Source: Candidatus Nomurabacteria bacterium (GTDB lineage Bacteria; Patescibacteriota; Saccharimonadia; Saccharimonadales; JAGQNJ01). From it: a DNA stretch of 64,000 bases. The notes beneath the pieces are model-generated. The model did no database searches. It was not told where the DNA came from and saw nothing but the letters and a program-made list of their open reading frames with translations. Where the stretch lies: contig CP060231.1 of the NCBI GenBank assembly GCA_023898625.1, positions 737,890 through 801,889 of the forward strand, in the 5' to 3' direction. This document shows, one piece after another, positions 5,817 to 59,561 of the stretch; position 1 is the stretch's first letter, and every line of letters begins with the position of its first letter. Both the position numbers and the translations under genes were made by a program.

Positions 5817-6311
5817 TTAAGCTTCTCGCAAGACAAATAGAGCAATAGCAGTAGCTTGGGCTACATTAAAGGACTCTTTTTGACCATACATGGCAATCTC
5901 AACAATATCGTCACATTGGTTTAATAGGTCGTGAGGGATGCCGTCAACTTCAGTGCCAAGTAGCAGGGCACATTTAGTTGGCGGTTGGTAGTCATTTAGT
6001 TTTATGCTATTACTAGACTGCTCTAGTCCAATGATTGTATACCGATCATTTTTTAGCTTTCTTAGTAGTTGCTGGAGGTTATCTTCATAGCTCCAAGAAA
6101 TGGAATTTTCTGCTCCAAGGGCTGTTTTCTTGATTTGATTAGTAAGCTTTTGGCTGATATGTGGCAAACGTTGATCAGAGTCAATGGTAGGGTACGGCGT
6201 AATCCCAGTCAGGTAAAAATGACTAACTCCAAATCCATCTGCAGTACGTAACAAAGATCCAACATTGTGGGTACTTCTAATGTCGTTTGCTATTATTACA
6301 ATGTCACGCAT
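5817..6311 (-). CDS. SpoU/TrmH-family RNA 2'-O-methyltransferase
   Basis: 164 aa with SPOUT motifs (HNVGSLLRTADGFG, LLLGTEVDGIP, SFNVAQATAIALF). Confidence 0.8.
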   Translation of the reverse strand: MRDIVIIANDIRSTHNVGSLLRTADGFGVSHFYLTGITPYPTIDSDQRLPHISQKLTNQIKKTALGAENSISWSYEDNLQQLLRKLKNDRYTIIGLEQSSNSIKLNDYQPPTKCALLLGTEVDGIPHDLLNQCDDIVEIAMYGQKESFNVAQATAIALFVLREA

Positions 6312-12710: not shown

Positions 12711-15278
12711 TTAGTGCTGTAATTTGAAATAATCAATAATCTTTTGACGGTCTCTCTTGCGCCAGGCAACACGAGCCTCAATATCTGCAAAACCAATTTT
12801 GATGTTGCGTTCTAATGTTTTGTTATCAAGCTTTGGTTCAAAAAACTCGTGGTAACGTTTTTGCCACTTTTCATCATTCATAGCATTTGCGGTATACACA
12901 GGCAAGAAATCGAAAGCTTTACTTTTAGATAGTGTTTCTTCAAACCATAACCAGTTTTGTTCCATAAATTCCCATATAGTTTCTCGGGTGTGACGATTGC
13001 GCAAAAACATGGCCATCCAGCGCATAATATCTTGTGGTCGGACAAAGCCGTCTTGGCCGAGTGCTTTAGATATTACTTTGTGTGCGACTTTGGGGTCTTT
13101 GGTACTCGACAGCCCACTGGTAATATCGGTTTGAACCTCAGAACTGGCTTGTTGATATTCATTGATTAATTTATCGATTACATCAGGAGATCCATAACGA
13201 ACTGCCGAACTTAAAATTGTTGGTCTAATTTCAGCATCAATATCGGTTATTGATGAAACTTGGTTGTATTTGCCTAGAGCTTCACTTATCGCTGGCTTAT
13301 GCTCTCCGGCTATCATGTAGGCAATCATTGTATGGCGTAACTGCTTGGTGTTAGGGTTATCTCTGGGTTGATCATCCCAGCCCAGTTTTTTGTACCAATC
13401 GCGAGCAAGCCGAATGCGGAGCTTTTTTAGCGCATCTTCGGTAGCCTGATGACCTTCGGTTAACTGGAGTACGTATCCTAATGTTCTGCTAATAAGCGCC
13501 CAAACACTATCGCGATCTTCTTTATGGCAATCAGATATTAATTTGACGGTAGTTAGAAGTGAATGAGTTCCTCCTCTTGCCAATAATAAACTATCATTAA
13601 TGAGATTAATCCTAGTAACGGCATCAACGGTCATGTTGGCGATTGAACTAGCTAGAAATTCTTGATCTTCTTGGTCTTCGTATTCAACGAAGTAGTGACC
13701 ACTACCATTAATATTTAACAAAATTGGCGAGTTCTTAAGATGGTTAATATTCTGGGCTGGCTTGCTTAGTAGTTCATGAGAAAGATTTTCGTTAGCAAGT
13801 AGTGGAATAGGCCATAGGGTGCCATTCGTAGCCTCATCTAGAACGAATCTTTTCTGAGATAAGCTAATGATATTGTTTTGATGATTAATTTTAACCACTG
13901 GCATACCAGATTGTTCAATCCAGGGCGTCATGAGTTTAGATATGTTTTTGTTGCTAGATTTAGAGAAAGCCTCCCACAGATCCTCGCGAGAAGTATTGCT
14001 ATAGGCGTGTTTTTTGAAGTATGTGTTTAATCCTTTTCTGAAGGCCTCTTCTCCGATGTATTCGCGTAACATTTTCAGAAGTCTACCACCCTTGGCATAA
14101 ACAATACTCGGATCAAAGAGGGTGTCTATTAATTCTGGGTCGGTTACCTTAACACCAACAGGCTGAATATCTTTATAGATATCTCGATTAGAAGTTGTAA
14201 TGACATCTGTTGACGTGTAGAACTCCCATTGTCGCCAACTAGGATGCAGTTCATCTAGTGCGATATGCTCCATGATGCTGGCGAAACTTTCATTCAACCA
14301 GAGATCGTCCCACCATTTCATAGTTACCAGATTGCCGAACCACTGATGAGATAGTTCATGAGCAATTACTAGGGAGATATATTGCTCGCTACTTATTGAT
14401 GGGTTGTCTGGATCGCTAAGCAGAGCAACTTCCCTATAAGTGATTAGTCCCCAGTTTTCCATAGCGCCAGCATCAAAATCTGGTAATGCTACCTGATCAC
14501 ATTTCTTAAGAGGATACTTTACTCCAAAATATGCTGTGAAAAACTCCAGCACTCTCACTGCTTCATCAACAGAGTAGCGTAGCTCTTTTTTTGGTCTTGC
14601 TAAACTGGACCAAGTACGAACTATAACACCGTCTTTTGTTTTGCTTTCAACGCTGTGCATAGGGCCAGTGACAAATGCAAGCAAATAAGTAGACATTTTT
14701 GGGGTAGTTTCAAAGATTGTTGTGGTGCGATTTGCAATTGTTTTTTGTTTAGAGACCGGAGTATTAGACAGTACTACATCTTTACTATCTGTTGTTAAGG
14801 TTAGGTCAAAAGTTGCTTTGGCAATTGGTTCGTCGATACAAGGGAAGGCCTCTCGAGCATAGTGACTTTCGAATTGAGTAGCGATGATTGTTTGAGCCTT
14901 ACCCTCATACTCAAATTTCGATGGATATATACCCAACATGCTGTCAGTAATTTGGCCTTCAAACTCTAGTTCCAGTGTATAATTTCCTGCGTATAGTTGA
15001 TCTTTAGAGTGTAACCGTACTTCGTCATAAGATTTGTGACACAGTATTCTAGAAAGTTCGATTTCTTGATCCTCGTTTTTGTTGTGTTTTATGACTTTAG
15101 CAGACGTTATGCGTAAATCTCTTTGATGCAATGTAATCCTTTGACTAGGTCTGCCAACTTTTTTCCCAGTAATAACAACCACACCCTTAAATTTTAAGTT
15201 TGTTTTATCAATATCTAGAGTTAGTTGATAGTTATTCGGTTGAAACTGTTCGTAGAGATGTCGTAATTTTTTGCTCAT
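12711..15278 (-). CDS. pepN: M1-family aminopeptidase N
   Basis: 855 aa with the GAMENWG exopeptidase motif and the HELSHQWFGNLVTMKWWDDLWLNESFA zinc site. Confidence 0.9.
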   Translation of the reverse strand: MSKKLRHLYEQFQPNNYQLTLDIDKTNLKFKGVVVITGKKVGRPSQRITLHQRDLRITSAKVIKHNKNEDQEIELSRILCHKSYDEVRLHSKDQLYAGNYTLELEFEGQITDSMLGIYPSKFEYEGKAQTIIATQFESHYAREAFPCIDEPIAKATFDLTLTTDSKDVVLSNTPVSKQKTIANRTTTIFETTPKMSTYLLAFVTGPMHSVESKTKDGVIVRTWSSLARPKKELRYSVDEAVRVLEFFTAYFGVKYPLKKCDQVALPDFDAGAMENWGLITYREVALLSDPDNPSISSEQYISLVIAHELSHQWFGNLVTMKWWDDLWLNESFASIMEHIALDELHPSWRQWEFYTSTDVITTSNRDIYKDIQPVGVKVTDPELIDTLFDPSIVYAKGGRLLKMLREYIGEEAFRKGLNTYFKKHAYSNTSREDLWEAFSKSSNKNISKLMTPWIEQSGMPVVKINHQNNIISLSQKRFVLDEATNGTLWPIPLLANENLSHELLSKPAQNINHLKNSPILLNINGSGHYFVEYEDQEDQEFLASSIANMTVDAVTRINLINDSLLLARGGTHSLLTTVKLISDCHKEDRDSVWALISRTLGYVLQLTEGHQATEDALKKLRIRLARDWYKKLGWDDQPRDNPNTKQLRHTMIAYMIAGEHKPAISEALGKYNQVSSITDIDAEIRPTILSSAVRYGSPDVIDKLINEYQQASSEVQTDITSGLSSTKDPKVAHKVISKALGQDGFVRPQDIMRWMAMFLRNRHTRETIWEFMEQNWLWFEETLSKSKAFDFLPVYTANAMNDEKWQKRYHEFFEPKLDNKTLERNIKIGFADIEARVAWRKRDRQKIIDYFKLQH

Positions 15279-48575: not shown

Positions 48576-49052
48576 ATGCCTAGGAAGAAAACTAAGAGTC
48601 TAGTTCGTGATATTCAGCCAGATCGGTTATATAACAGCGTTCAAGTTCAAAAAGTAATCAATAGAGTAATGCTTAATGGTAAGAAGCAAATTGCTGAAAG
48701 GCTAGTTTATGGTGGAATGCAAAAATCTGCCGATAAACTAAAGGTTAAAAATCCACTGGATGTTTTTGAGCAAGCATTGAAAAATATTCAGCCAAGTCTA
48801 GAAACTCGTTCTCGTCGTGTTGGTGGTGCTAATTATCAGATCCCTTTTGAGGTTAAAGGGCAACGTCAACAACATTTAACAATTATGTGGTTTGTTCAAG
48901 CTTCTCGTGCAAGAAGTGGTATAAGTATGGAAGACCGAATAGCGTTAGAGTTAGTCGATGCCTATAACAATACCGGCTCTGCAGTTAAGAAAAAAGAGGA
49001 TACTCACAAAATGGCCGAAGCCAACCGTGCTTTTGCTCACTTTGCCAGGTAA
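48576..49052 (+). CDS. rpsG: 30S ribosomal protein S7
   Basis: 158 aa with an S7 core (GKK..AE.I.Y.A ... RRVGGANYQIP.EV). Confidence 0.95.
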   Translation: MPRKKTKSLVRDIQPDRLYNSVQVQKVINRVMLNGKKQIAERLVYGGMQKSADKLKVKNPLDVFEQALKNIQPSLETRSRRVGGANYQIPFEVKGQRQQHLTIMWFVQASRARSGISMEDRIALELVDAYNNTGSAVKKKEDTHKMAEANRAFAHFAR

Positions 49053-49056
49053 TCAT

Positions 49057-49398
49057 ATGAGTTTAAAGTGTATCTATGAAGGACTGTGTCCAGCCTATAT
49101 GGCTTGCGAATCTGCAACAGATGCGTTAGATGCGTTTGTTGACAAGAATTCGGTAGATCAAAGTTGGAAGCAAGAACAAGAACTAATAGTTCAAATGAGA
49201 AAGTACGCACTATTGTCTGTAGCAGAAAGAATTGACTGTGGTCGCTTTCAAGATAATGAAGAATGTGCTGATAATGTTTCACAATATTCTTGTCCATTGC
49301 CATTTGGTTTAGTAGAAAATACTGCTTTTGGACCTCCAGAAGAAATGCGACGTTCAGCAATACAAATTGTAAATAATAACAAGCCAAAAGGATTTTAA
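49057..49398 (+). CDS. Hypothetical 113-aa Cys-containing protein embedded between rpsG and fusA
   Basis: The ATG lies 4 nt after the rpsG stop. The ORF fills the whole rpsG-fusA gap and ends 13 nt before fusA. It has six Cys residues. I recognised no homology. Confidence 0.5.
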   Translation: MSLKCIYEGLCPAYMACESATDALDAFVDKNSVDQSWKQEQELIVQMRKYALLSVAERIDCGRFQDNEECADNVSQYSCPLPFGLVENTAFGPPEEMRRSAIQIVNNNKPKGF

Positions 49399-51622: not shown

Positions 51623-52714
51623 ATGCAACAGATATATACTGAATCATTCTTGAGGGGTTATGCTCGTAAGACTATGAGATCTATACAAGACATAACCCAA
51701 CACCCATATAAACATGTAATTGAGCAAAGACTCAAGATAATTCAGTTCTATGATGATTTCGGGGAACAAGCCACCAGACAAGCTTTTAGCGTAAGTAGGA
51801 GCACTGTGTTCAGCTGGAAGAGGCGTCTAAAGGATAACAATGGCTCACTCAGATGTTTAGCTCCAAAGAGCACTGCACCAAAACACAAACGCAAGCGAAT
51901 GGTAGATATGCGTATTACTAACTTTATTCTAGAACAAAGAAGCTTACACCCTAAGCTAAGTAAAGATAAGCTAGCCGTATTACTCAAAGATGAGTGTACA
52001 GCTTGGAATCTAAAACCACCTTCGGCATCTACCGTAGGTAGAATCCTCAAAGACCTTAAGTTTCAAGGCCTATTACCAAAATATACCAGGTTAACCGTTT
52101 CAGGTGCTACCGGCAAACTACTTGAGAAACAAAGTCGTAAGCCAAGACTCAATAAACAACGCAGGAATGGTTATCAGCCTGAGCAACCAGGAGATATGCT
52201 ACAGATAGACACTATTGTTAAGTTTATAAACGGTATACGCCGTTATGTACTTACAGCAGTAGATTACAAAGGTAGATTCGGCTTTGCCTATGGCTATACT
52301 AGCCCCAGTAGTACCAACGCAGCAGACTTCCTGAACAAACTGCAAGCTGTTACCCCATTTGAGATCAGACGAGTGCATCATGACAATGGTAGTGAGTTCT
52401 ACAAACACTTCATAAGAGCCTGTGATGAACGAAACATTGAACAGCTCTGGAACTATCCCAAAAGACCTAAGAATAACGGAATGGTTGAAAGATTTAACCG
52501 TAGCATCCAAGAAGAGTTTATAGACTGGAACCTAGATAATCTAGCCTATGACCTTGAGGATTTCAATAATTCATTGATGGACTGGTGTATATGGTATAAC
52601 ACAAAAAGACCACATTATGGACTTGGTTTAAAAAGTCCAATGCAGTACTTACTAGAAGTGTTACAATTAAGCCAACAGGAGTCCAGAATGTTATGGACGG
52701 ATACAACTACTTGA
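51623..52714 (+). CDS. DDE-type (integrase core, rve) transposase, IS481-family-like
   Basis: 363 aa with an N-terminal HTH (STVFSWKRRL). The catalytic region runs LQIDT... HHDNGSEF ... NGMVERFNRSIQEEF ... YNTKRPHYGLGLKSP. Confidence 0.85.
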   Translation: MQQIYTESFLRGYARKTMRSIQDITQHPYKHVIEQRLKIIQFYDDFGEQATRQAFSVSRSTVFSWKRRLKDNNGSLRCLAPKSTAPKHKRKRMVDMRITNFILEQRSLHPKLSKDKLAVLLKDECTAWNLKPPSASTVGRILKDLKFQGLLPKYTRLTVSGATGKLLEKQSRKPRLNKQRRNGYQPEQPGDMLQIDTIVKFINGIRRYVLTAVDYKGRFGFAYGYTSPSSTNAADFLNKLQAVTPFEIRRVHHDNGSEFYKHFIRACDERNIEQLWNYPKRPKNNGMVERFNRSIQEEFIDWNLDNLAYDLEDFNNSLMDWCIWYNTKRPHYGLGLKSPMQYLLEVLQLSQQESRMLWTDTTT

Positions 52715-52805
52715 CAAATGTATGAATTAATGCTAATGTTAAGTGAATACAAAATTTAGATACATTTAGATATTTGTATTTATGTTAACGATTAAGGAGA
52801 AATAT

Positions 52806-53387
52806 ATGTTAGAGAAAAGAGAGATACTAGACCTTGAATTATTTGAAGGTGCTGGTGTTAAGCATGATCAAATTGCATTAATTAGTGCGGCAACTGACGC
52901 AATTGTTGCATGCAGTGATTGGGCAGAAAGACAGAAAGTTGCCGTCGCAAGTTTATTAGCTAGTTGCGTCACTATTGATAGTGATATACTGGGTGGAGAT
53001 GTTGATTTTGATGATTCAGCCTGGCAAGACACTGTGTCTAGACTAGTTGCTGCTGGAGTTGTTGATGCTTCAGCGTATTACGAAGAAATAGACAGTTCTT
53101 GTTTATTTGATGAGGATAGTGATCCTACAACAATTTCAAGAACTAAGCTTGAAAGTATACTCTCCAGCGCAGAAGAATATAAACGGCAACAAAGTATCGT
53201 TCCTGAGGGAGATGACGAATCAGAGGACTATTCTGACGATTTTCTAGAACTTCTTGCTGATTCACGGGGCGACGATATTGTTGAATCGCGAGACTATACT
53301 AGTGGCGACGAAGAATCTAACGGAGAAGATGATCTCGATGATGATCAACAAAATGATGTCGTTATCATTGACGGCGTAGAATTTTAG
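52806..53387 (+). CDS. Hypothetical, extremely acidic protein (193 aa)
   Basis: I chose the ATG at 52806 because AAGGAG lies 7 nt upstream. The C-terminal half is packed with Asp/Glu runs (GDDESEDYSDD, GDEESNGEDDLDDDQQND). No known domain recognised. Confidence 0.55.
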   Translation: MLEKREILDLELFEGAGVKHDQIALISAATDAIVACSDWAERQKVAVASLLASCVTIDSDILGGDVDFDDSAWQDTVSRLVAAGVVDASAYYEEIDSSCLFDEDSDPTTISRTKLESILSSAEEYKRQQSIVPEGDDESEDYSDDFLELLADSRGDDIVESRDYTSGDEESNGEDDLDDDQQNDVVIIDGVEF

Positions 53388-53429
53388 TTATTTGTATATT
53401 AAAATTGTTAAATTTTGGATATCTGATCT

Positions 53430-55019
53430 ATGAAATCGAACCCTGAGCTTATTGATGAGGTTTTTGAGTATGTATCCCCAATAGCAGTTGCTTACGGTGG
53501 TGATATATCATCTGTCATGTCTTCACTGGCTTTAACTAAGTCGATTCTTCAAACCGCTCATCCAGACAGAGGTTTTGAATATTCTGATTCATTGGTTAAT
53601 GCAAATAGGCTATATTCGTCAATTAAAGACTCAAACAAAGTACAACACGAGATTCTAACAGAATGTACCGAAGACACAGTGGAGCCTCTCGGTAAGTTAC
53701 GAAAAGCGGATGTTTTGAACCAAAATATTGATGTATTGATTGAGTCAATAACTAAAGAAACCAGACAAGATACACATGACGTATCTGATACTTCTCACTA
53801 CATTGTCCCAAGTGATGTTGATATAGACGAAGACAGTAGTGATCATGATCTTTCCTTTTTACTGAACACAAAGATTATCGATCAGTTAAAAGAACTAGAT
53901 GGTGAGGATCTTAATTTTGTGATTAAACAATTAAGGAAATATACTTTAAAAAATCAAAATTTAGAAATTCCGGATATATCTAGTAGTCAATGGTCAGTAC
54001 TATTTGATAGAATTCAAAATGGTGATGTTTCATGGGAATCTCTAAATAAGTCGAATGGAGAGGTCGCTAGCGTGCATCTTAAAAACGCAGAAGATCGAGT
54101 GTTACCTTTTTTGAGTTTATTTAGTCCAGAATCAAGCTATATTTTCCCAAAAAACTGGTATAGGTCCTTCAGTGGTTTGGTATATGCCCCCATGTTTGAT
54201 ATTTATGATTACGAGGATCACCAAACAAGAATTGCGCGTAATAAAAAATCATATTGGCAAAACTTTAAAATCTTAAATGTACAGAATGGCATTGTTGTAG
54301 ATGAAAGACAAATAGATTACGGGGACAGAGAGTCAATTCAACTTGTAGATGGTTTGCCAACAAAGAAGCACCGATCGATAATGGAATTAGTTAATGATGT
54401 GCTAAAGGAGATAGGTAGCGACGATAGCTTTTTGGTCACAAATTCTGAAAACGGAGACCAAATCGGTCCTGCAAATTTTGTATTTTTTGTCAAAAATCAA
54501 ATAGCTACGGTAGTCGGTACTGACTTGCAACATGCTAAACACACCATAAATAACAAGATACAGCGTGAGGATGTGGCTATTGATGACGGAGTATATATGA
54601 TTAAGGCTGGTAAACCACAAGGTGCTACTGAATATGATAAACAAAACTTACCTCTCGCTCTGATAAAATTAAAAGAGATGAAAATTCCAAAACGAAATAG
54701 CTACAAGGGTTTCGCTCTGGTAGGTGAGTGCTCATATGTTCTTGATGCTAATGACGATGTTTCAACAATGATACGCAATAACCAGATTATGGATGTATGT
54801 TTAGATCAGAAACCTGACACCGAACAAATTAACGGAAGGCAGAGAATAGAAGTTATGTTAAAAATCTTGTTACAGGATTCAATATCTAAAGTAACTCAAA
54901 GCTTATTAATGAAACGTGATTATATGAAGGTAAGTAGAATGTTGGCGGTTAATAAGGATAATCAGATGATCAATATTAATGAGCTTGACCCATATAGGCT
55001 TACGTTTATTAGCGAGTAA
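53430..55019 (+). CDS. Hypothetical protein (529 aa)
   Basis: A long uninterrupted ORF on the same strand with codon usage like the core genes. I saw no Walker, HExxH, DxD or other motif. Confidence 0.6.
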   Translation: MKSNPELIDEVFEYVSPIAVAYGGDISSVMSSLALTKSILQTAHPDRGFEYSDSLVNANRLYSSIKDSNKVQHEILTECTEDTVEPLGKLRKADVLNQNIDVLIESITKETRQDTHDVSDTSHYIVPSDVDIDEDSSDHDLSFLLNTKIIDQLKELDGEDLNFVIKQLRKYTLKNQNLEIPDISSSQWSVLFDRIQNGDVSWESLNKSNGEVASVHLKNAEDRVLPFLSLFSPESSYIFPKNWYRSFSGLVYAPMFDIYDYEDHQTRIARNKKSYWQNFKILNVQNGIVVDERQIDYGDRESIQLVDGLPTKKHRSIMELVNDVLKEIGSDDSFLVTNSENGDQIGPANFVFFVKNQIATVVGTDLQHAKHTINNKIQREDVAIDDGVYMIKAGKPQGATEYDKQNLPLALIKLKEMKIPKRNSYKGFALVGECSYVLDANDDVSTMIRNNQIMDVCLDQKPDTEQINGRQRIEVMLKILLQDSISKVTQSLLMKRDYMKVSRMLAVNKDNQMININELDPYRLTFISE

Positions 55020-55108
55020 TATTAGCATGTATGATCTTTTGATATTTGACAACTTAACTGGTGTAAAATACCATATAATTGGTAATCAACCCAAGAAAGG
55101 ATTTGAAA

Positions 55109-55324
55109 ATGAGTGAATATAATAGAAGGCAAACTTCTGATGAGGAAAGAGCCAAGGCAGAAGAATGGATGAGGAAGAACCAGGAAGCACTTGGTGATGA
55201 TTTTTTGCAGGGTGAGCGTGTTCTATCACGCGAAGAACAGCAAAGTTATGTTGAAGAACAGTCTAACAGTGGACATAATGGCGATGAAGGCCAGCCTCAA
55301 GAGCTTAACGTTCCGAAAGAATAG
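55109..55324 (+). CDS. Hypothetical small acidic protein (71 aa)
   Basis: The ATG at 55109 is preceded by AAAGGA at 8 nt. The sequence is helical and Glu-rich (SDEERAKAEEWMRKNQEAL). Confidence 0.4.
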   Translation: MSEYNRRQTSDEERAKAEEWMRKNQEALGDDFLQGERVLSREEQQSYVEEQSNSGHNGDEGQPQELNVPKE

Positions 55325-55432
55325 TTATTACGAGAAATTATAGACAAACCAAAATGTTGGTATTGCGGGAAAGTTAAGGCGAACGCAATAGATTGATGAG
55401 ATACGAAAAGTTCATCAATAGTTAGAATATAC

Positions 55433-55461
55433 TTTACAATTAGTGGATAGTTGGATACAAT
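55433..55461 (+). promoter_or_regulatory. Putative dedicated tuf promoter
   Basis: TTTACA (55433-55438), a 17-nt spacer, then TACAAT (55456-55461). The SD AAAAGGAG lies upstream of ATG 55532. Confidence 0.45.
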
Positions 55462-55531
55462 TCATTGGTAACTCGTGTGAGTTGTTATACTCATGCAAGA
55501 TAAAATTAAGTAATAAAAGGAGCTAATATTC

Positions 55532-56713
55532 ATGGCTGACTTCGATCGAAGCAAACCGCATGTTAACGTAGGCACAATGGGTCACGTTGACCACGGTAAA
55601 ACAACATTAACGGCAGCAATTACCCATACGCTTTCAAAGCGTTTGCCAAGCGACGTAAACAAACCTATAAATTACGATCAAATTGATAACGCCCCTGAAG
55701 AAAAACAACGCGGTATTACCATTGCTGTTTCTCACCAGGAATATGAAACCGAAAAGCGACACTATGCTCACGTTGATATGCCAGGACACGCTGACTACAT
55801 CAAGAACATGATTACCGGCGCAGCCCAGGTTGATGGGGCTGTATTGGTTGTTTCGGCAGCGGATGGTCCTATGCCACAAACTCGCGAGCACGTTCTTTTA
55901 GCTCGACAAGTTGGTGTTCCTAAAATTGTTGTATTCCTAAACAAGATGGATCTTGCAGACCCAGAGCTTGTTGAACTTGTTGAAATGGACGTCCGTGAAC
56001 TACTTGAAAAGAATGGTTTTGATGAAGATGCTCCAATTATCAAGGGTTCTGCTACTAAAGCTCTTGAAGGTTCAGAAGCTGATATGGATGCAGTTATGGA
56101 ACTTGTTAAGGCTATGGATGAATTTATTCCAGAACCAAAGCGTGATCTTGATAAGCCATTTATGATGGCCATTGAAGATGTATTCTCAATCAAGGGTCGT
56201 GGTACGGTAGCTACTGGTCGTATTGAACAAGGTATCGTAAAGATTAACGACGAAGTTGAGATTGTCGGTATCCGAGACACTAAGAAGAGTGTTGTTACTG
56301 GTGTTGAGATGTTCAAGAAGAATCTTGATCAAGGTCAAGCTGGCGATAACGTTGGTATTTTGCTTAGAGGTATTGAGCGCGATGATATAGAGCGCGGTCA
56401 AGTTTTGGCTAAACCAGGAACAATTACTCCTCATACAGAGTTTGACGCAGAAGTTTATGTGTTAACTAAAGAAGAAGGTGGACGACACACACCATTCTTT
56501 AAAGGATATAAGCCTCAGTTCTACTTCCGTACAACGGATGTGACTGGCGAGGTTGAACTACCTGCCGATAAAGAGATGGTGATGCCTGGCGATACTGTTA
56601 CGTTTAAGGTCAAATTGATCCAGCCAATTGCTATGGACCAAGGTCAACGTTTTGCTATCCGTGAAGGTGGTCGAACCGTTGGCGCTGGTGTCGTAACAAA
56701 GATTACTAAGTAA
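55532..56713 (+). CDS. tuf: Elongation factor Tu
   Basis: 393 aa with [18 protein letters not shown] and NKMD motifs and canonical domains II and III. Confidence 0.98.
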
Positions 56714-56733
56714 TCCGAGAAGCCAAAAAAAAC

Positions 56734-56763
56734 GAATGAGCCGAGCTTATCCTCGGCTCATTC
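56734..56763. other. Perfect 12-bp hairpin downstream of tuf, with the A8/T8 tract on the upstream side
   Basis: GAATGAGCCGAG-CTTATC-CTCGGCTCATTC is preceded by A8 (56725-56732) and followed only by AATTTAT. The U-tract geometry therefore fits a minus-strand terminator better than a plus-strand one. Confidence 0.6.
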
Positions 56764-56792
56764 AATTTATAAGTTATGGTATATTTTGTAAT

Positions 56793-56990
56793 ATGAGTAT
56801 AGAATATTTTGATTCTAAAGAAATGAAGACTTATGGATTTGATCCACTAAGCAGTGTTGACCGTGAACTATGGTTGGCAACTACTCCTGACGAGTATGCT
56901 GAGACAGATTATAGCCAAGACCATCAAGCTTATGGTGGTTTATGTTCGGATGAAACATCTGGACAGAACTATGATATTAATGTAGAATAA
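56793..56990 (+). CDS. Hypothetical small acidic protein (65 aa) between tuf and rpsJ
   Basis: The ATG at 56793 lies 7 nt after an extended -10 TGgTATATT (56777-56785). The ORF-track start at 56736 would run through the hairpin. Confidence 0.4.
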   Translation: MSIEYFDSKEMKTYGFDPLSSVDRELWLATTPDEYAETDYSQDHQAYGGLCSDETSGQNYDINVE

Positions 56991-57084
56991 TGTGTGTAAA
57001 TTAATTGTGATGACTAAAAGTCGTTGTATGCGTTCTAAATACTATACAAAGATGTTACATCACTAGAATAAAGGAGCTTATTCT

Positions 57085-57417
57085 ATGGCGACTGCCAAAA
57101 AACCAGAATCTACAAAACCAAGGATACGTATTCGTCTTAAGGCATATGATCATAAAGTTATTGATCAATCAGCAAAGCAAATTGTTGAAACGGCGCTTAG
57201 GACTGGGGCAACGATTGCTGGGCCTATTCCATTACCTACTCAAAAAACAACCTATACTGTTGTAAAGAGCCCTCATGTTTATAAAAAAGGGCGTGAACAA
57301 TTTGAGATGCGGATTCATAAAAGATTGATTGATGTCTTAGAGCCAACACCTAAAACTATTGATAATCTAATGAATCTATCGCTCCCAGCAGGTTGTGATG
57401 CAGAAATCAAAATGTAG
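57085..57417 (+). CDS. rpsJ: 30S ribosomal protein S10
   Basis: 110 aa with [12 protein letters not shown] and [22 protein letters not shown]. The SD is AAAGGAG. Confidence 0.95.
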
Positions 57418-57456
57418 CATTTCTACACTAAGACCAATGTGATAAACTACTAGTTA

Positions 57457-57729
57457 GTGTCAGCCAAACAAACAAACAAAAAAAATCGCAAAAAGTTAGC
57501 AGATAACAGATATCTATTGAAATTTGTTATCGCATTAATTCTGGGCTTCATTTGGGTTCGTGTGTCCATCAGTGGAATAGTCATACCTATCCCAATTGGC
57601 TTGATAGTTGGTCTGTTATTTATCAGTAAAAACAAGTTAAATACTGATAAAAAGATTGTTACAGCTGTTCTATTGGTTTCGATGTTGATTGGATATTGGG
57701 CTCAAACAGGGTTATTTATTAGCTTATAA
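57457..57729 (+). CDS. Hypothetical small membrane protein (90 aa, about 3 TM) between rpsJ and rplC
   Basis: It has a GTG start, a Lys-rich N-terminus encoded by a (CAAA)n/A8 tract, and then three hydrophobic helices. Confidence 0.4.
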   Translation: MSAKQTNKKNRKKLADNRYLLKFVIALILGFIWVRVSISGIVIPIPIGLIVGLLFISKNKLNTDKKIVTAVLLVSMLIGYWAQTGLFISL

Positions 57730-57736
57730 TACTTTG

Positions 57737-58165
57737 ATGATTAAGGATGATTTTAAAATACAAGATCTAGATATTCCTGTTTCAATACAGGATTTTCAGG
57801 ATGTGGCCATAAATATTGGGAGCGAGAAAGGTATCGGAACCAGACTATTTAGAGATATTAGCTTGAGAGGGTCGCTTTATCCAATTGCTTTAAAGACAAA
57901 ACAAGGCGAACATTTAACTTTTGATGAACAAAGAAAGCTAGAACAATACGGGAGTGACTACCTTGAAATTCACTATTTTGGAGATGACGCCACAGACCCA
58001 AGCAATCTGTCGTTAAATGGACTGAATAGATTATTAAGTAGCGGTATGCTCGAAGGCGTTATGTCGACAACTAACAAGAGATATCAAGTAAGAAAACAAA
58101 TATTAGACGAAGTAATCTCTAGCAAATCAGTAGTAAAGACACACCAACCCGACGATGTAGAATAA
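57737..58165 (+). CDS. Hypothetical protein (142 aa) between rpsJ and rplC
   Basis: The ATG at 57737 lies 6 nt after TATAAT (57725-57730). No domain recognised. Confidence 0.5.
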   Translation: MIKDDFKIQDLDIPVSIQDFQDVAINIGSEKGIGTRLFRDISLRGSLYPIALKTKQGEHLTFDEQRKLEQYGSDYLEIHYFGDDATDPSNLSLNGLNRLLSSGMLEGVMSTTNKRYQVRKQILDEVISSKSVVKTHQPDDVE

Positions 58166-58317
58166 ACAACATATTGACAGAGGTATAGGTAATCTGTTAA
58201 TCTGTTATGGTATATTTTCAATTACTTGGTGTATACTCGTAAGTTCATGTCAATGAATACTGCAATATGCCAAGGATTTTTATGTCAAATAATCGGTAAA
58301 GAAATAATAGGAGAACT

Positions 58318-58929
58318 ATGAAAGCATTAATTACTAGAAAGGTAGGCATGACAAGCATTATTGGTGAAGATGGTGTCTTGCAAGCAGTTACCTTGCTTTC
58401 CGCTAGTCCGAATGTCGTTACTCAAATAAAGTCTATTGAGAGTGATGGGTATATGGCAGTTCAGCTTGGTTTTGAAGAAGGTAAGAATCTCTCCAAACAA
58501 GTAGCTGGACACGTTAAAAAGGCGGGGGTAACACCAAAGAAAATTCGTGAATTTCGAATTGATGAAGTATCAGAAGATCTAGTAGTCGGTAGTAAAGTAA
58601 CTGCCGACTCTTTTGTTGCAGGTGATACAGTTGATGTGGTGGGAACTAGCAAGGGTAAAGGCTTTGCTGGAACAATCAAACGACATAACTTCCACCGTGG
58701 ACGGAAGACTCATGGTGGAAGAAGCTACAGAAGGCCTGGATCAATCGGCTCTATGTACCCTCAGAAGATTTTCAAAGGCAAGAAAATGGCTGGTCAAATG
58801 GGCGCCGAAAGAGTAACTGTCAAGAATCTTAAAGTAGCATTCGTGGATACTGATCTGAATATTATTGCAGTGGCTGGTGCTGTTCCGGGTCCAAGAAAAG
58901 GTCTAGTACTTATAAAGGAGGCTAAGTAA
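58318..58929 (+). CDS. rplC: 50S ribosomal protein L3
   Basis: 203 aa with GTSKGKGFAG.IKRHNF and GS.G....P.KIFKGKKMAG.MG. Confidence 0.95.
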   Translation: MKALITRKVGMTSIIGEDGVLQAVTLLSASPNVVTQIKSIESDGYMAVQLGFEEGKNLSKQVAGHVKKAGVTPKKIREFRIDEVSEDLVVGSKVTADSFVAGDTVDVVGTSKGKGFAGTIKRHNFHRGRKTHGGRSYRRPGSIGSMYPQKIFKGKKMAGQMGAERVTVKNLKVAFVDTDLNIIAVAGAVPGPRKGLVLIKEAK

Positions 58930-59561
58930 TGAGCGTCCCAACATATACCAAGACTGGAAATAAGGCAACTACAACACAAACTTTAAATAAAGCAATTTTT
59001 GGGCTTAAGGTTGAAAGTCATGATTTATTAAAACAAGCTTATCATGCTTACCTAGCAAATGGGCGTGCTAACCTTGCTGTAACCAAGACTCGTGGATTAG
59101 TGCGTGGTGGTGGACGCAAACCTTGGAAGCAAAAAGGAACTGGACGTGCTCGTTTTGGATCAATCAGAAACCCTATTTGGCGAGGCGGTGGTATTGTATT
59201 TGGTCCTACTGGTCAAGAAAATTACACCCATACTCTAAACACCCAGTCAAAGCGAACTGCTATTAAACAAGCATTGAGCTTACAGAACAGCCAAATAAAA
59301 GTTATCGAAACATTTGAGTCAAAAGATGGAAAGACAAACGAAACTGCCAAGTTGCTTGCAAAACTCGGAGCAGAAAGAAGAATATTGCTAGTTGTTGACA
59401 ACAAGAACGATTTAGTAGAGCGTGCCACTCGTAATATATCGAACTTGTTAGTAGTGCAGGCTAAGTATTTGAATGTTTTTGATATCTTAAATGCTGATTC
59501 TATTCTTATCACAAAAGAATCATTGAAGATTATTGATGAGTGGCTTGGAGGTGATAAATAA
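58929..59561 (+). CDS. rplD: 50S ribosomal protein L4
   Basis: 210 aa with GGGRKPWKQKGTGRAR.GS.R.P.W.GGG. Its start overlaps the rplC stop. Confidence 0.95.
   Translation: MSVPTYTKTGNKATTTQTLNKAIFGLKVESHDLLKQAYHAYLANGRANLAVTKTRGLVRGGGRKPWKQKGTGRARFGSIRNPIWRGGGIVFGPTGQENYTHTLNTQSKRTAIKQALSLQNSQIKVIETFESKDGKTNETAKLLAKLGAERRILLVVDNKNDLVERATRNISNLLVVQAKYLNVFDILNADSILITKESLKIIDEWLGGDK

Follow-up and report, generated by a model that had tools for sequence, protein, structure and literature searches.

The locus studied here raises the question of why two ribosomal protein genes, rpsJ (uS10) and rplC, whose adjacency a first-pass annotation of this DNA had called nearly universal, stand 900 nt apart in a stretch of 64,000 nucleotides of Candidatus Nomurabacteria contig CP060231.1 (hereafter, the window), and of how the two open reading frames (ORFs) in between, ORF-A and ORF-B, came to lie there. 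The annotation had read the arrangement as a recent, lineage-specific split of the S10 operon. The 900-nt separation and the extents of the two ORFs, of 90 and 142 amino acids (aa), are confirmed (Table 1), and both ORFs are genes, as had been proposed: ORF-A is intact in all close relatives, and both show a ratio of nonsynonymous to synonymous substitution rates (dN/dS) of about 0.12 to 0.15. The origin of the gap is read differently here. The rpsJ/rplC junction is probably a boundary between transcription units, at which the rplC unit would have its own promoter and a leader or attenuator, ORF-A would be the resident gene, and further genes would be variable cargo.

The first line of evidence comes from the relatives' rpsJ-rplC synteny, which was compared over 80 Saccharibacteria loci fetched around rpsJ. 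Among the 61 loci in which both genes were found, the distance between them ranges from 138 to 3343 nt, and it is 202 nt or less in just six. In about 24 further loci, rplC falls outside the DNA fetched downstream of rpsJ (at most 4 kb, some contigs being shorter). Homologues of ORF-A lie inside the gap in at least 44 loci, and the other genes found there vary by locus, including NUDIX, VanY, PGA_cap, DUF3152, DUF4870 and adenosine deaminase. Upstream, tuf precedes rpsJ in 69 of 73 loci, at a junction that is itself variable (2-3173 nt). Given that the gap is widespread across Saccharibacteria and that ORF-A is its usual occupant, the split is ancestral and class-wide. Hence, the comparison contradicts a recent split and indicates that the rpsJ-rplC break is old and common to Saccharibacteria, with ORF-A as the usual resident and ORF-B as one of many cargo genes.

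The second line of evidence is the promoter preceding rplC. Between ORF-B and rplC lie 152 nt whose identity is 87.5-97.6% among genomes with saturated synonymous sites and an ORF-B identity of only 54-88%. The pattern TTGACA-18 nt-TGnTAATCT precedes rplC in 54 of 62 loci, and the box that precedes it, GTAGAAT-N3-CAAC, is conserved also in loci that have no ORF-B. The six loci with short gaps still carry both promoter and leader between rpsJ and rplC, the promoter pattern beginning a few bases past the rpsJ stop codon. A consensus scan missed the promoter, because TAATCT matches just three of six positions, and it missed the hairpin described below as well.

The first-pass annotation had also given rplC promoter elements of its own, and this class-conserved pattern supports the existence of such a promoter, but places it elsewhere. 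The TGGTATATT element that was proposed as a -10 is present and matches an extended -10 within the window's clade. Across the class, however, neither its TG nor its final T is conserved (TATATC, TATCTC and CGG... occur instead), so it is not the conserved -10, which is TGtTAATCT. It may still act as a second, overlapping extended -10 in the window's clade. The identical 9-mer also occurs after tuf, at 56777-56785, where a leaderless ORF of 65 aa begins with its ATG 7 nt further on. The second proposed element, TATACT (58232-58237), exists as a sequence, but since it lies inside the 5' strand of hairpin stem P1 it is not a promoter element. With either promoter, the hairpin would sit in the 5' untranslated region of rplC.

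That hairpin provides the third line of evidence. A covariance model (R1) was built from 27 sequences and searched against 84 sources, of which 54 gave a match, one each, always on the + strand and right before rplC (20-200 nt 5' of it); L087, L088 and L090 are matched as well. Within the window there is a single match, at 58208-58287, with 62 bits and E=1e-11. In the alignment, 96.9% of cells are paired, in comparison with 84.7% in shuffles and 30-50% in slid controls. Compensatory changes are seen in 12 of 14 pairs (101 cells) in the alignment fitted to the model, and in 9 of 14 pairs when RNAalifold is run on a plain MAFFT alignment. The hairpin has a folding energy of about -15 kcal/mol, and the bases of its bulge and internal loop, GUAGGUC / AGAAACCGC, are conserved. 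Owing to its interrupted stem, it escaped a simple terminator scan. In Rfam 15, the stretch 55000-59000 has no match at E<=1, and a search of the whole window at gathering thresholds returned one tRNA only. No paper was found in the literature on a Saccharibacteria ribosomal-protein leader, nor any report of one for the Candidate Phyla Radiation. These values indicate a class-wide, covarying rplC leader RNA that is undescribed in Rfam and in the literature searched.

Table 1. Coordinates of the features around the rpsJ-rplC junction, in window positions.
Feature	Position	Strand	Remarks
rpsJ 5' leader	57007-57063	+	P1 57007-12/57058-63; P2 57020-22/57051-53, then G.A mismatch
rpsJ (ribosomal protein uS10)	57085-57417	+	Pfam Ribosomal_S10, E=7e-36
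Extended -10 box TGATAAACT	57440-57448	+	8 nt before ORF-A GTG
ORF-A, 90 aa, GTG start	57457-57729	+	Small hydrophobic protein
(CAAA)3-C-A8 tract	57465-57485	+	Encodes KQTNKKN; A8 at 57478-57485, within first 10 codons
TATAAT	57725-57730	+	6 nt before ORF-B ATG; overlaps ORF-A Leu-stop codons
ORF-B, 142 aa	57737-58165	+	Soluble protein, predicted all-alpha
Box GTAGAAT-N3-CAAC	58157-58170	+	UP-element position before -35; overlaps ORF-B Val-Glu-stop
-35 hexamer TTGACA	58174-58179	+	Invariant in 28-sequence alignment A2
Extended -10 TGtTAATCT	58195-58203	+	18 nt after -35; TG, TA, CT at least 90% conserved
YGGTAT box, here TGGTATATT	58208-58216	+	Conserved, at inferred transcription start
rplC leader hairpin	58225-58274	+	P1 58225-34/58265-74; P2 58242-47/58254-61, 2-nt bulge
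U-run UUUUU	58277-58281	+	Starts 2 nt after stem; TTTT nearly invariant in 54-sequence alignment A6
rplC	58318-58929	+	Shine-Dalgarno AGGAG 58309-58313; followed by rplD, rplW, rplB and further ribosomal genes

The shape of this element, a stem followed by a U-run, is also that of an intrinsic terminator. It might therefore be supposed to end the upstream unit (rpsJ, ORF-A and ORF-B) instead of leading the rplC transcript, all the more since no other terminator follows rpsJ or ORF-B. We consider this very unlikely, given that in every locus the hairpin comes after the conserved rplC promoter, where a terminator would also stop the rplC transcripts. The hairpin is moreover kept where the gene before it lies on the other strand (L052, L055 and L064), it stands at a fixed distance from rplC whatever the upstream gene, and the conservation of its bulge and internal loop far exceeds the needs of a terminator.

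With the element read as a leader of rplC, the following architecture can be proposed. The rpsJ gene would travel with tuf, and rplC-rplD-rplW-rplB onward would form a separate unit, expressed from a sigma-70-type promoter through the structured leader. By analogy with Escherichia coli, the leader may be an autoregulatory attenuator bound by one of the operon's own products, most likely uL4; the transcription starts, the ligand and the mechanism of attenuation are what we infer from sequence. Genes inserted at the boundary would land upstream of the rplC promoter and leader, which would leave the control of rplC, rplD and the genes that follow intact and the ribosomal genes coupled. In most lineages the boundary holds ORF-A, which would be leaderless and have its own extended -10, together with variable cargo, here ORF-B.

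A repeated motif was noticed in the same region. The sequence ACAGRGGT(A) occurs twice, about 80 nt apart, in L040, L008, L021, L026 and others in alignment A2, the window's clade not being among them. One copy lies right after the TTG of the -35 (TTGACAGAGGTA) and the other in the hairpin tip (AACAGAGGTAGAAACC), and the full AACAGRGGT is present in 16 of 54 leaders.

The signal sensed by the leader could also be something other than a ribosomal protein: the hairpin could act as a riboswitch, bind another protein or an RNase, or stabilise the 5' end. We judge this unlikely. In its favour, no similarity to rRNA was found when E. coli rRNA was scanned, and the motif repeated in the -35 flank and hairpin tip of roughly half the loci may indicate a factor that binds both DNA and RNA. 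However, a single bulged hairpin with no multi-helix junction is unlike most riboswitches, and the leaders that have been studied before operons containing rplD are controlled by ribosomal proteins (PMC3616713, PMC7247131).

Several results weigh against the proposed boundary and its autoregulatory leader. In the roughly 24 loci whose rplC falls outside the fetched DNA, the leader was likewise not found within that DNA. The promoter and terminator scan found no terminator between rpsJ, ORF-A, ORF-B and the rplC promoter, so that read-through is likely and the units are perhaps not fully independent. The window hairpin has only a modest folding advantage over shuffled sequence (z=-1.6), and the U-run is short (4-6 U) and begins 2 nt after the stem. 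As to mimicry of an rRNA site bound by a ribosomal protein, the best hit of model R1 in E. coli rRNA had E=4.9 and no resemblance was seen; motif scans of E. coli 16S and 23S rRNA gave nothing convincing.

If the junction is a boundary, its usual resident deserves description. A profile of 38 ORF-A members retrieved at least 792 clusters at 90% identity, all of about 85-110 aa; where named, these belong to Saccharimonas or Saccharimonadales, and none has a Pfam domain. Two distant members that were looked up independently likewise lie between rpsJ and rplC. Members share a Lys-rich N-terminus, three hydrophobic segments, a basic tail of 15-45 residues, and an invariant loop, ...H(D/E)HFxIDRKIEYA..., that includes the conserved motif DRKIEYA. 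The AlphaFold model (pLDDT 79.7) has helices at residues 18-31, 47-57 and 65-82 and a hairpin at 34-45. The first-pass annotation had described a protein with three transmembrane (TM) segments, which the three hydrophobic stretches and three modelled helices make plausible. Values of dN/dS for ORF-A against L005 and L001 (0.12-0.13, Nei-Gojobori) correspond to purifying selection, in comparison with 0.01-0.04 for ribosomal protein L3 against the same two, and are to be read with synonymous sites near saturation among the compared genomes (pS 0.62-0.84). The possibility that the ORFs are spurious was rejected.

Scans of Pfam, NCBIfam, PHROGs and PADLOC gave no match above threshold for ORF-A, and a Foldseek search of its model against the Protein Data Bank (PDB) gave none better than E=1. 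The weakest lead was Pfam DUF2198, of about 70 aa, which like ORF-A comprises small hydrophobic bacterial proteins; with 15.2 bits against a gathering cut-off of 25.7, and only one of the 38 members matching, ORF-A is not a member. An assignment to SecE was rejected as it lacks family support. Hence, the results point to ORF-A as a large, unannotated, Saccharibacteria-wide family of small membrane proteins.

The start of ORF-A suggests how it is expressed. The same GTG start is kept in all close relatives, and in most of 39 ORF-A loci the start codon lacks a Shine-Dalgarno sequence and has a TGnTAnnnT element 6-9 nt ahead of it, variants in the family including TGCTATAAT, TGATATAAT, TGCTACAAT and similar. 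The gene would thus head a leaderless transcript from its own extended -10 promoter. Gene callers missed ORF-A in 5 of 15 related contigs checked; it is easily overlooked because it is leaderless and, in the window's clade, starts with GTG. The same signature precedes at least nine other genes of the window, whereas ribosomal protein genes have a strong AGGAG instead. Genes of this type, some with GTG starts, stand first in operons, e.g., 5817-6311(-), 9277, 12711-15278(-), 20150, 25715, 26538, 30228 and 34044. Given so many operon-first genes with TGnTAnnnT 6-9 nt before the start, leaderless initiation seems common in this Saccharibacterium. Leaderless mRNAs are common in Actinobacteria, Deinococcus and Archaea, and the likeness to ORF-A lies in a -10 box 6-9 nt before the ATG or GTG and in the lack of a Shine-Dalgarno sequence. 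No experimental mapping of leaderless mRNAs in Saccharibacteria was found in the literature, the assignment here being made from sequence alone.

Within the first codons of ORF-A lies the slippery tract for which the first-pass annotation had proposed phase-variable expression. The tract and the GTG start are there, although (CAAA)3 begins at 57465, one base earlier than had been given. Assembled sequences give no support to phase variation itself: the A8 run has the same length, and ORF-A is in frame, in nine of nine independent assemblies of the same species; in relatives the tract is interrupted by G or C (A6GA5, A6GA3 and A5GA3CA6), always in frame; and no frameshifted allele was seen. What the tract encodes is a positively charged N-terminus rich in Lys and Asn, which is a trait of the whole ORF-A family.

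The cargo gene of this locus, ORF-B, has a much narrower distribution. Homologues are found at 99, 88, 74, 70 and 54% identity, and all those that could be placed lie between rpsJ and rplC, the family's constant site being that from ORF-A to the rplC promoter. An exhaustive HMMER search with an ORF-B profile gave eight representatives among 1.8 billion, two of which, long repeat proteins with DUF6348 and DUF7487 repeats, were treated as compositional artefacts. The family is therefore tiny, with about six real clusters at 50% identity. A member that is only 38% identical (P0012) nonetheless has the same layout of ORF-A, ORF-B, promoter, leader and rplC. These observations indicate that ORF-B is older than the immediate clade and is a rare accessory gene. 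Its dN/dS of 0.13-0.15 (Nei-Gojobori, against L005 and L001) reflects purifying selection. Nothing above threshold was found for it in Pfam, NCBIfam, PHROGs or PADLOC scans, and its all-alpha AlphaFold model (pLDDT 68.5) had no match better than E=1 in Foldseek against the PDB.

With respect to its expression, the TATAAT that had been noted before ORF-B is present, and it could act as a -10 for a leaderless ORF-B. The box is conserved in the closest relatives only: at that position L002 has a Shine-Dalgarno AGGAG, and L087 has TGGCATAAT 8 nt before the ATG. ORF-B, which begins 7 nt past the ORF-A stop, is probably co-transcribed with ORF-A or translated by re-initiation. At its other end, the last codons, GTA GAA TAA (58157-58165), are the box GTAGAAT(AA) upstream of the rplC promoter, and the distant homologues P0006, P0012 and P0014 also end in ...VE. 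Given this coincidence of terminal codons with a conserved DNA box, the C-terminus of the protein is fixed by the DNA element.

The results for both ORFs bear on the original scenario as a whole, i.e., that a recent lineage-specific insertion split the S10 operon, that rplC acquired new promoters, and that A8 slippage switches the membrane protein. The tract does fall within the first ten codons, ORF-B is confined to a small clade, and the genome does carry a recent insertion linked to an IS481 element between fusA and tuf. Even so, the scenario is hardly credible. It is largely refuted by synteny, given the Saccharibacteria-wide conservation of ORF-A and of the rplC promoter and leader; the 38%-identical ORF-B homologue is at the same position; and the A8 data speak against switching. 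No repeats or transposase flank ORF-A and ORF-B either: no terminal repeats bracketing 57418-58170 were found, and the sole transposase, which stands between fusA and tuf, is 5 kb further upstream. On these grounds, an origin of ORF-A and ORF-B in a mobile element was rejected.

The reading of the junction as an old boundary between units is best seen against the order of the window, rpoB-rpoC-rpsL-rpsG-fusA-[IS481 transposase + 3 ORFs]-tuf-[small ORF]-rpsJ-[ORF-A, ORF-B]-rplC-rplD-rplW-rplB onward. Judged by the names of its database hits, the window belongs to a Candidatus Saccharibacteria (TM7) genome. Between fusA and tuf there is a 4-kb insertion (51623-55324) with an IS481-family transposase at 51623-52714 (NCBIfam 178 bits, below the cut-off of 224; Pfam rve) and three ORFs (201, 529 and 81 aa) that match no family. 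Given that the fusA-tuf spacing is just 110 nt in L001, this insertion is recent and probably mobile. The tuf stop is followed by a strong hairpin of 13 bp (56733-56764), flanked by an A8 run upstream and a weak U-run downstream. The ORF between tuf and rpsJ (within 56733-56990) had been listed as 84 aa and is more likely a 65-aa leaderless gene from the ATG at 56793; it is 73-81% identical in L001 and L005 and has no family match. At the rpsG-fusA junction, a small ORF (48958-49398), listed as 146 aa (124 aa in L001), has no Pfam match. The ribosomal cluster had been proposed as a hotspot for lineage-specific genes. This stands insofar as the junctions are variable clade-wide, the rpsJ-rplC gap extending from 138 nt to over 4 kb; the split itself, given the shared synteny, is not lineage-specific.

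A second leader precedes rpsJ. It was found with nhmmer and a regular expression in about 57 loci, where the tuf-rpsJ spacing exceeds about 150 nt, and it is absent where rpsJ directly follows tuf. Its P1, GTGATG/CATCAC, covaries in other clades to ATGCCG/CGGCAT or GTATCG/CGATAC, and the unpaired ACUAAAA (or AGAA) and GUUAC are conserved. In total, pairing is found in 96.8% of cells, in comparison with 66.3% in shuffles, for a structure drawn by hand from the same sequences. Rfam gave no match to it. This is probably a second undescribed covarying leader RNA. As a tentative extension, to which we would give slightly less than even weight, the S10 cluster may have been rewired into two units, each headed by an undescribed RNA that senses a ribosomal protein (57007-63 and 58225-81), and the fixed position of ORF-A, with its highly basic cytoplasmic tail, may reflect a role linked to translation or the membrane.

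The regulation of ribosomal proteins is poorly mapped outside Proteobacteria and Firmicutes, and the rplC and rpsJ leaders are concrete targets for studying how ultra-small epibionts balance ribosome synthesis. The proposed placement of promoter and leader would explain why a supposedly rigid adjacency accepts insertions in this class. ORF-A, for its part, lacks any family annotation despite its wide conservation in Saccharibacteria.

In comparison with known systems, the closest model is the E. coli S10 leader, an L4-responsive attenuator and translational operator that is confined to Gammaproteobacteria (Zengel & Lindahl; reviewed in PMC3616713). The likeness lies in a structured 5' leader past the promoter and before an operon with rplD, in which hairpin and U-run suggest attenuation. 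The E. coli leader, however, differs in sequence, is upstream of rpsJ and has five hairpins (HA-HG), whereas the Saccharibacteria element is between rpsJ and rplC and has a single bulged hairpin. Hence, an assignment of the rplC leader to the E. coli-type S10 (L4) leader was rejected, owing to its position, its single hairpin and the lack of an Rfam match at E<=1. A candidate L4 leader in Archaeoglobi, rated '?', lies upstream of rplC-rplD-rplW-rplB (Eckert & Weinberg 2020, PMC7247131). It resembles the present element in that it immediately precedes rplC, and does so in a lineage whose S10 gene is outside that unit; it differs in being archaeal, and Rfam 15, where the motif would be expected to be filed, has no match to 55000-59000 at E<=1.

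As for the gene order, the adjacency of rpsJ and rplC was overstated when it was called nearly universal, given that in Archaea uS10 is always encoded separately from uL3-uL4-uL23 (PMC10833476). In Gammaproteobacteria, multigene insertions occur between concatenated ribosomal operons (PMC6735719). Both cases share with the present one that rpsJ is uncoupled from rplC and that junctions between operons tolerate insertions. Saccharibacteria differ from both in that rpsJ and rplC usually remain within a few kb of each other and in the same orientation, and in that the junction has a conserved resident gene, ORF-A.

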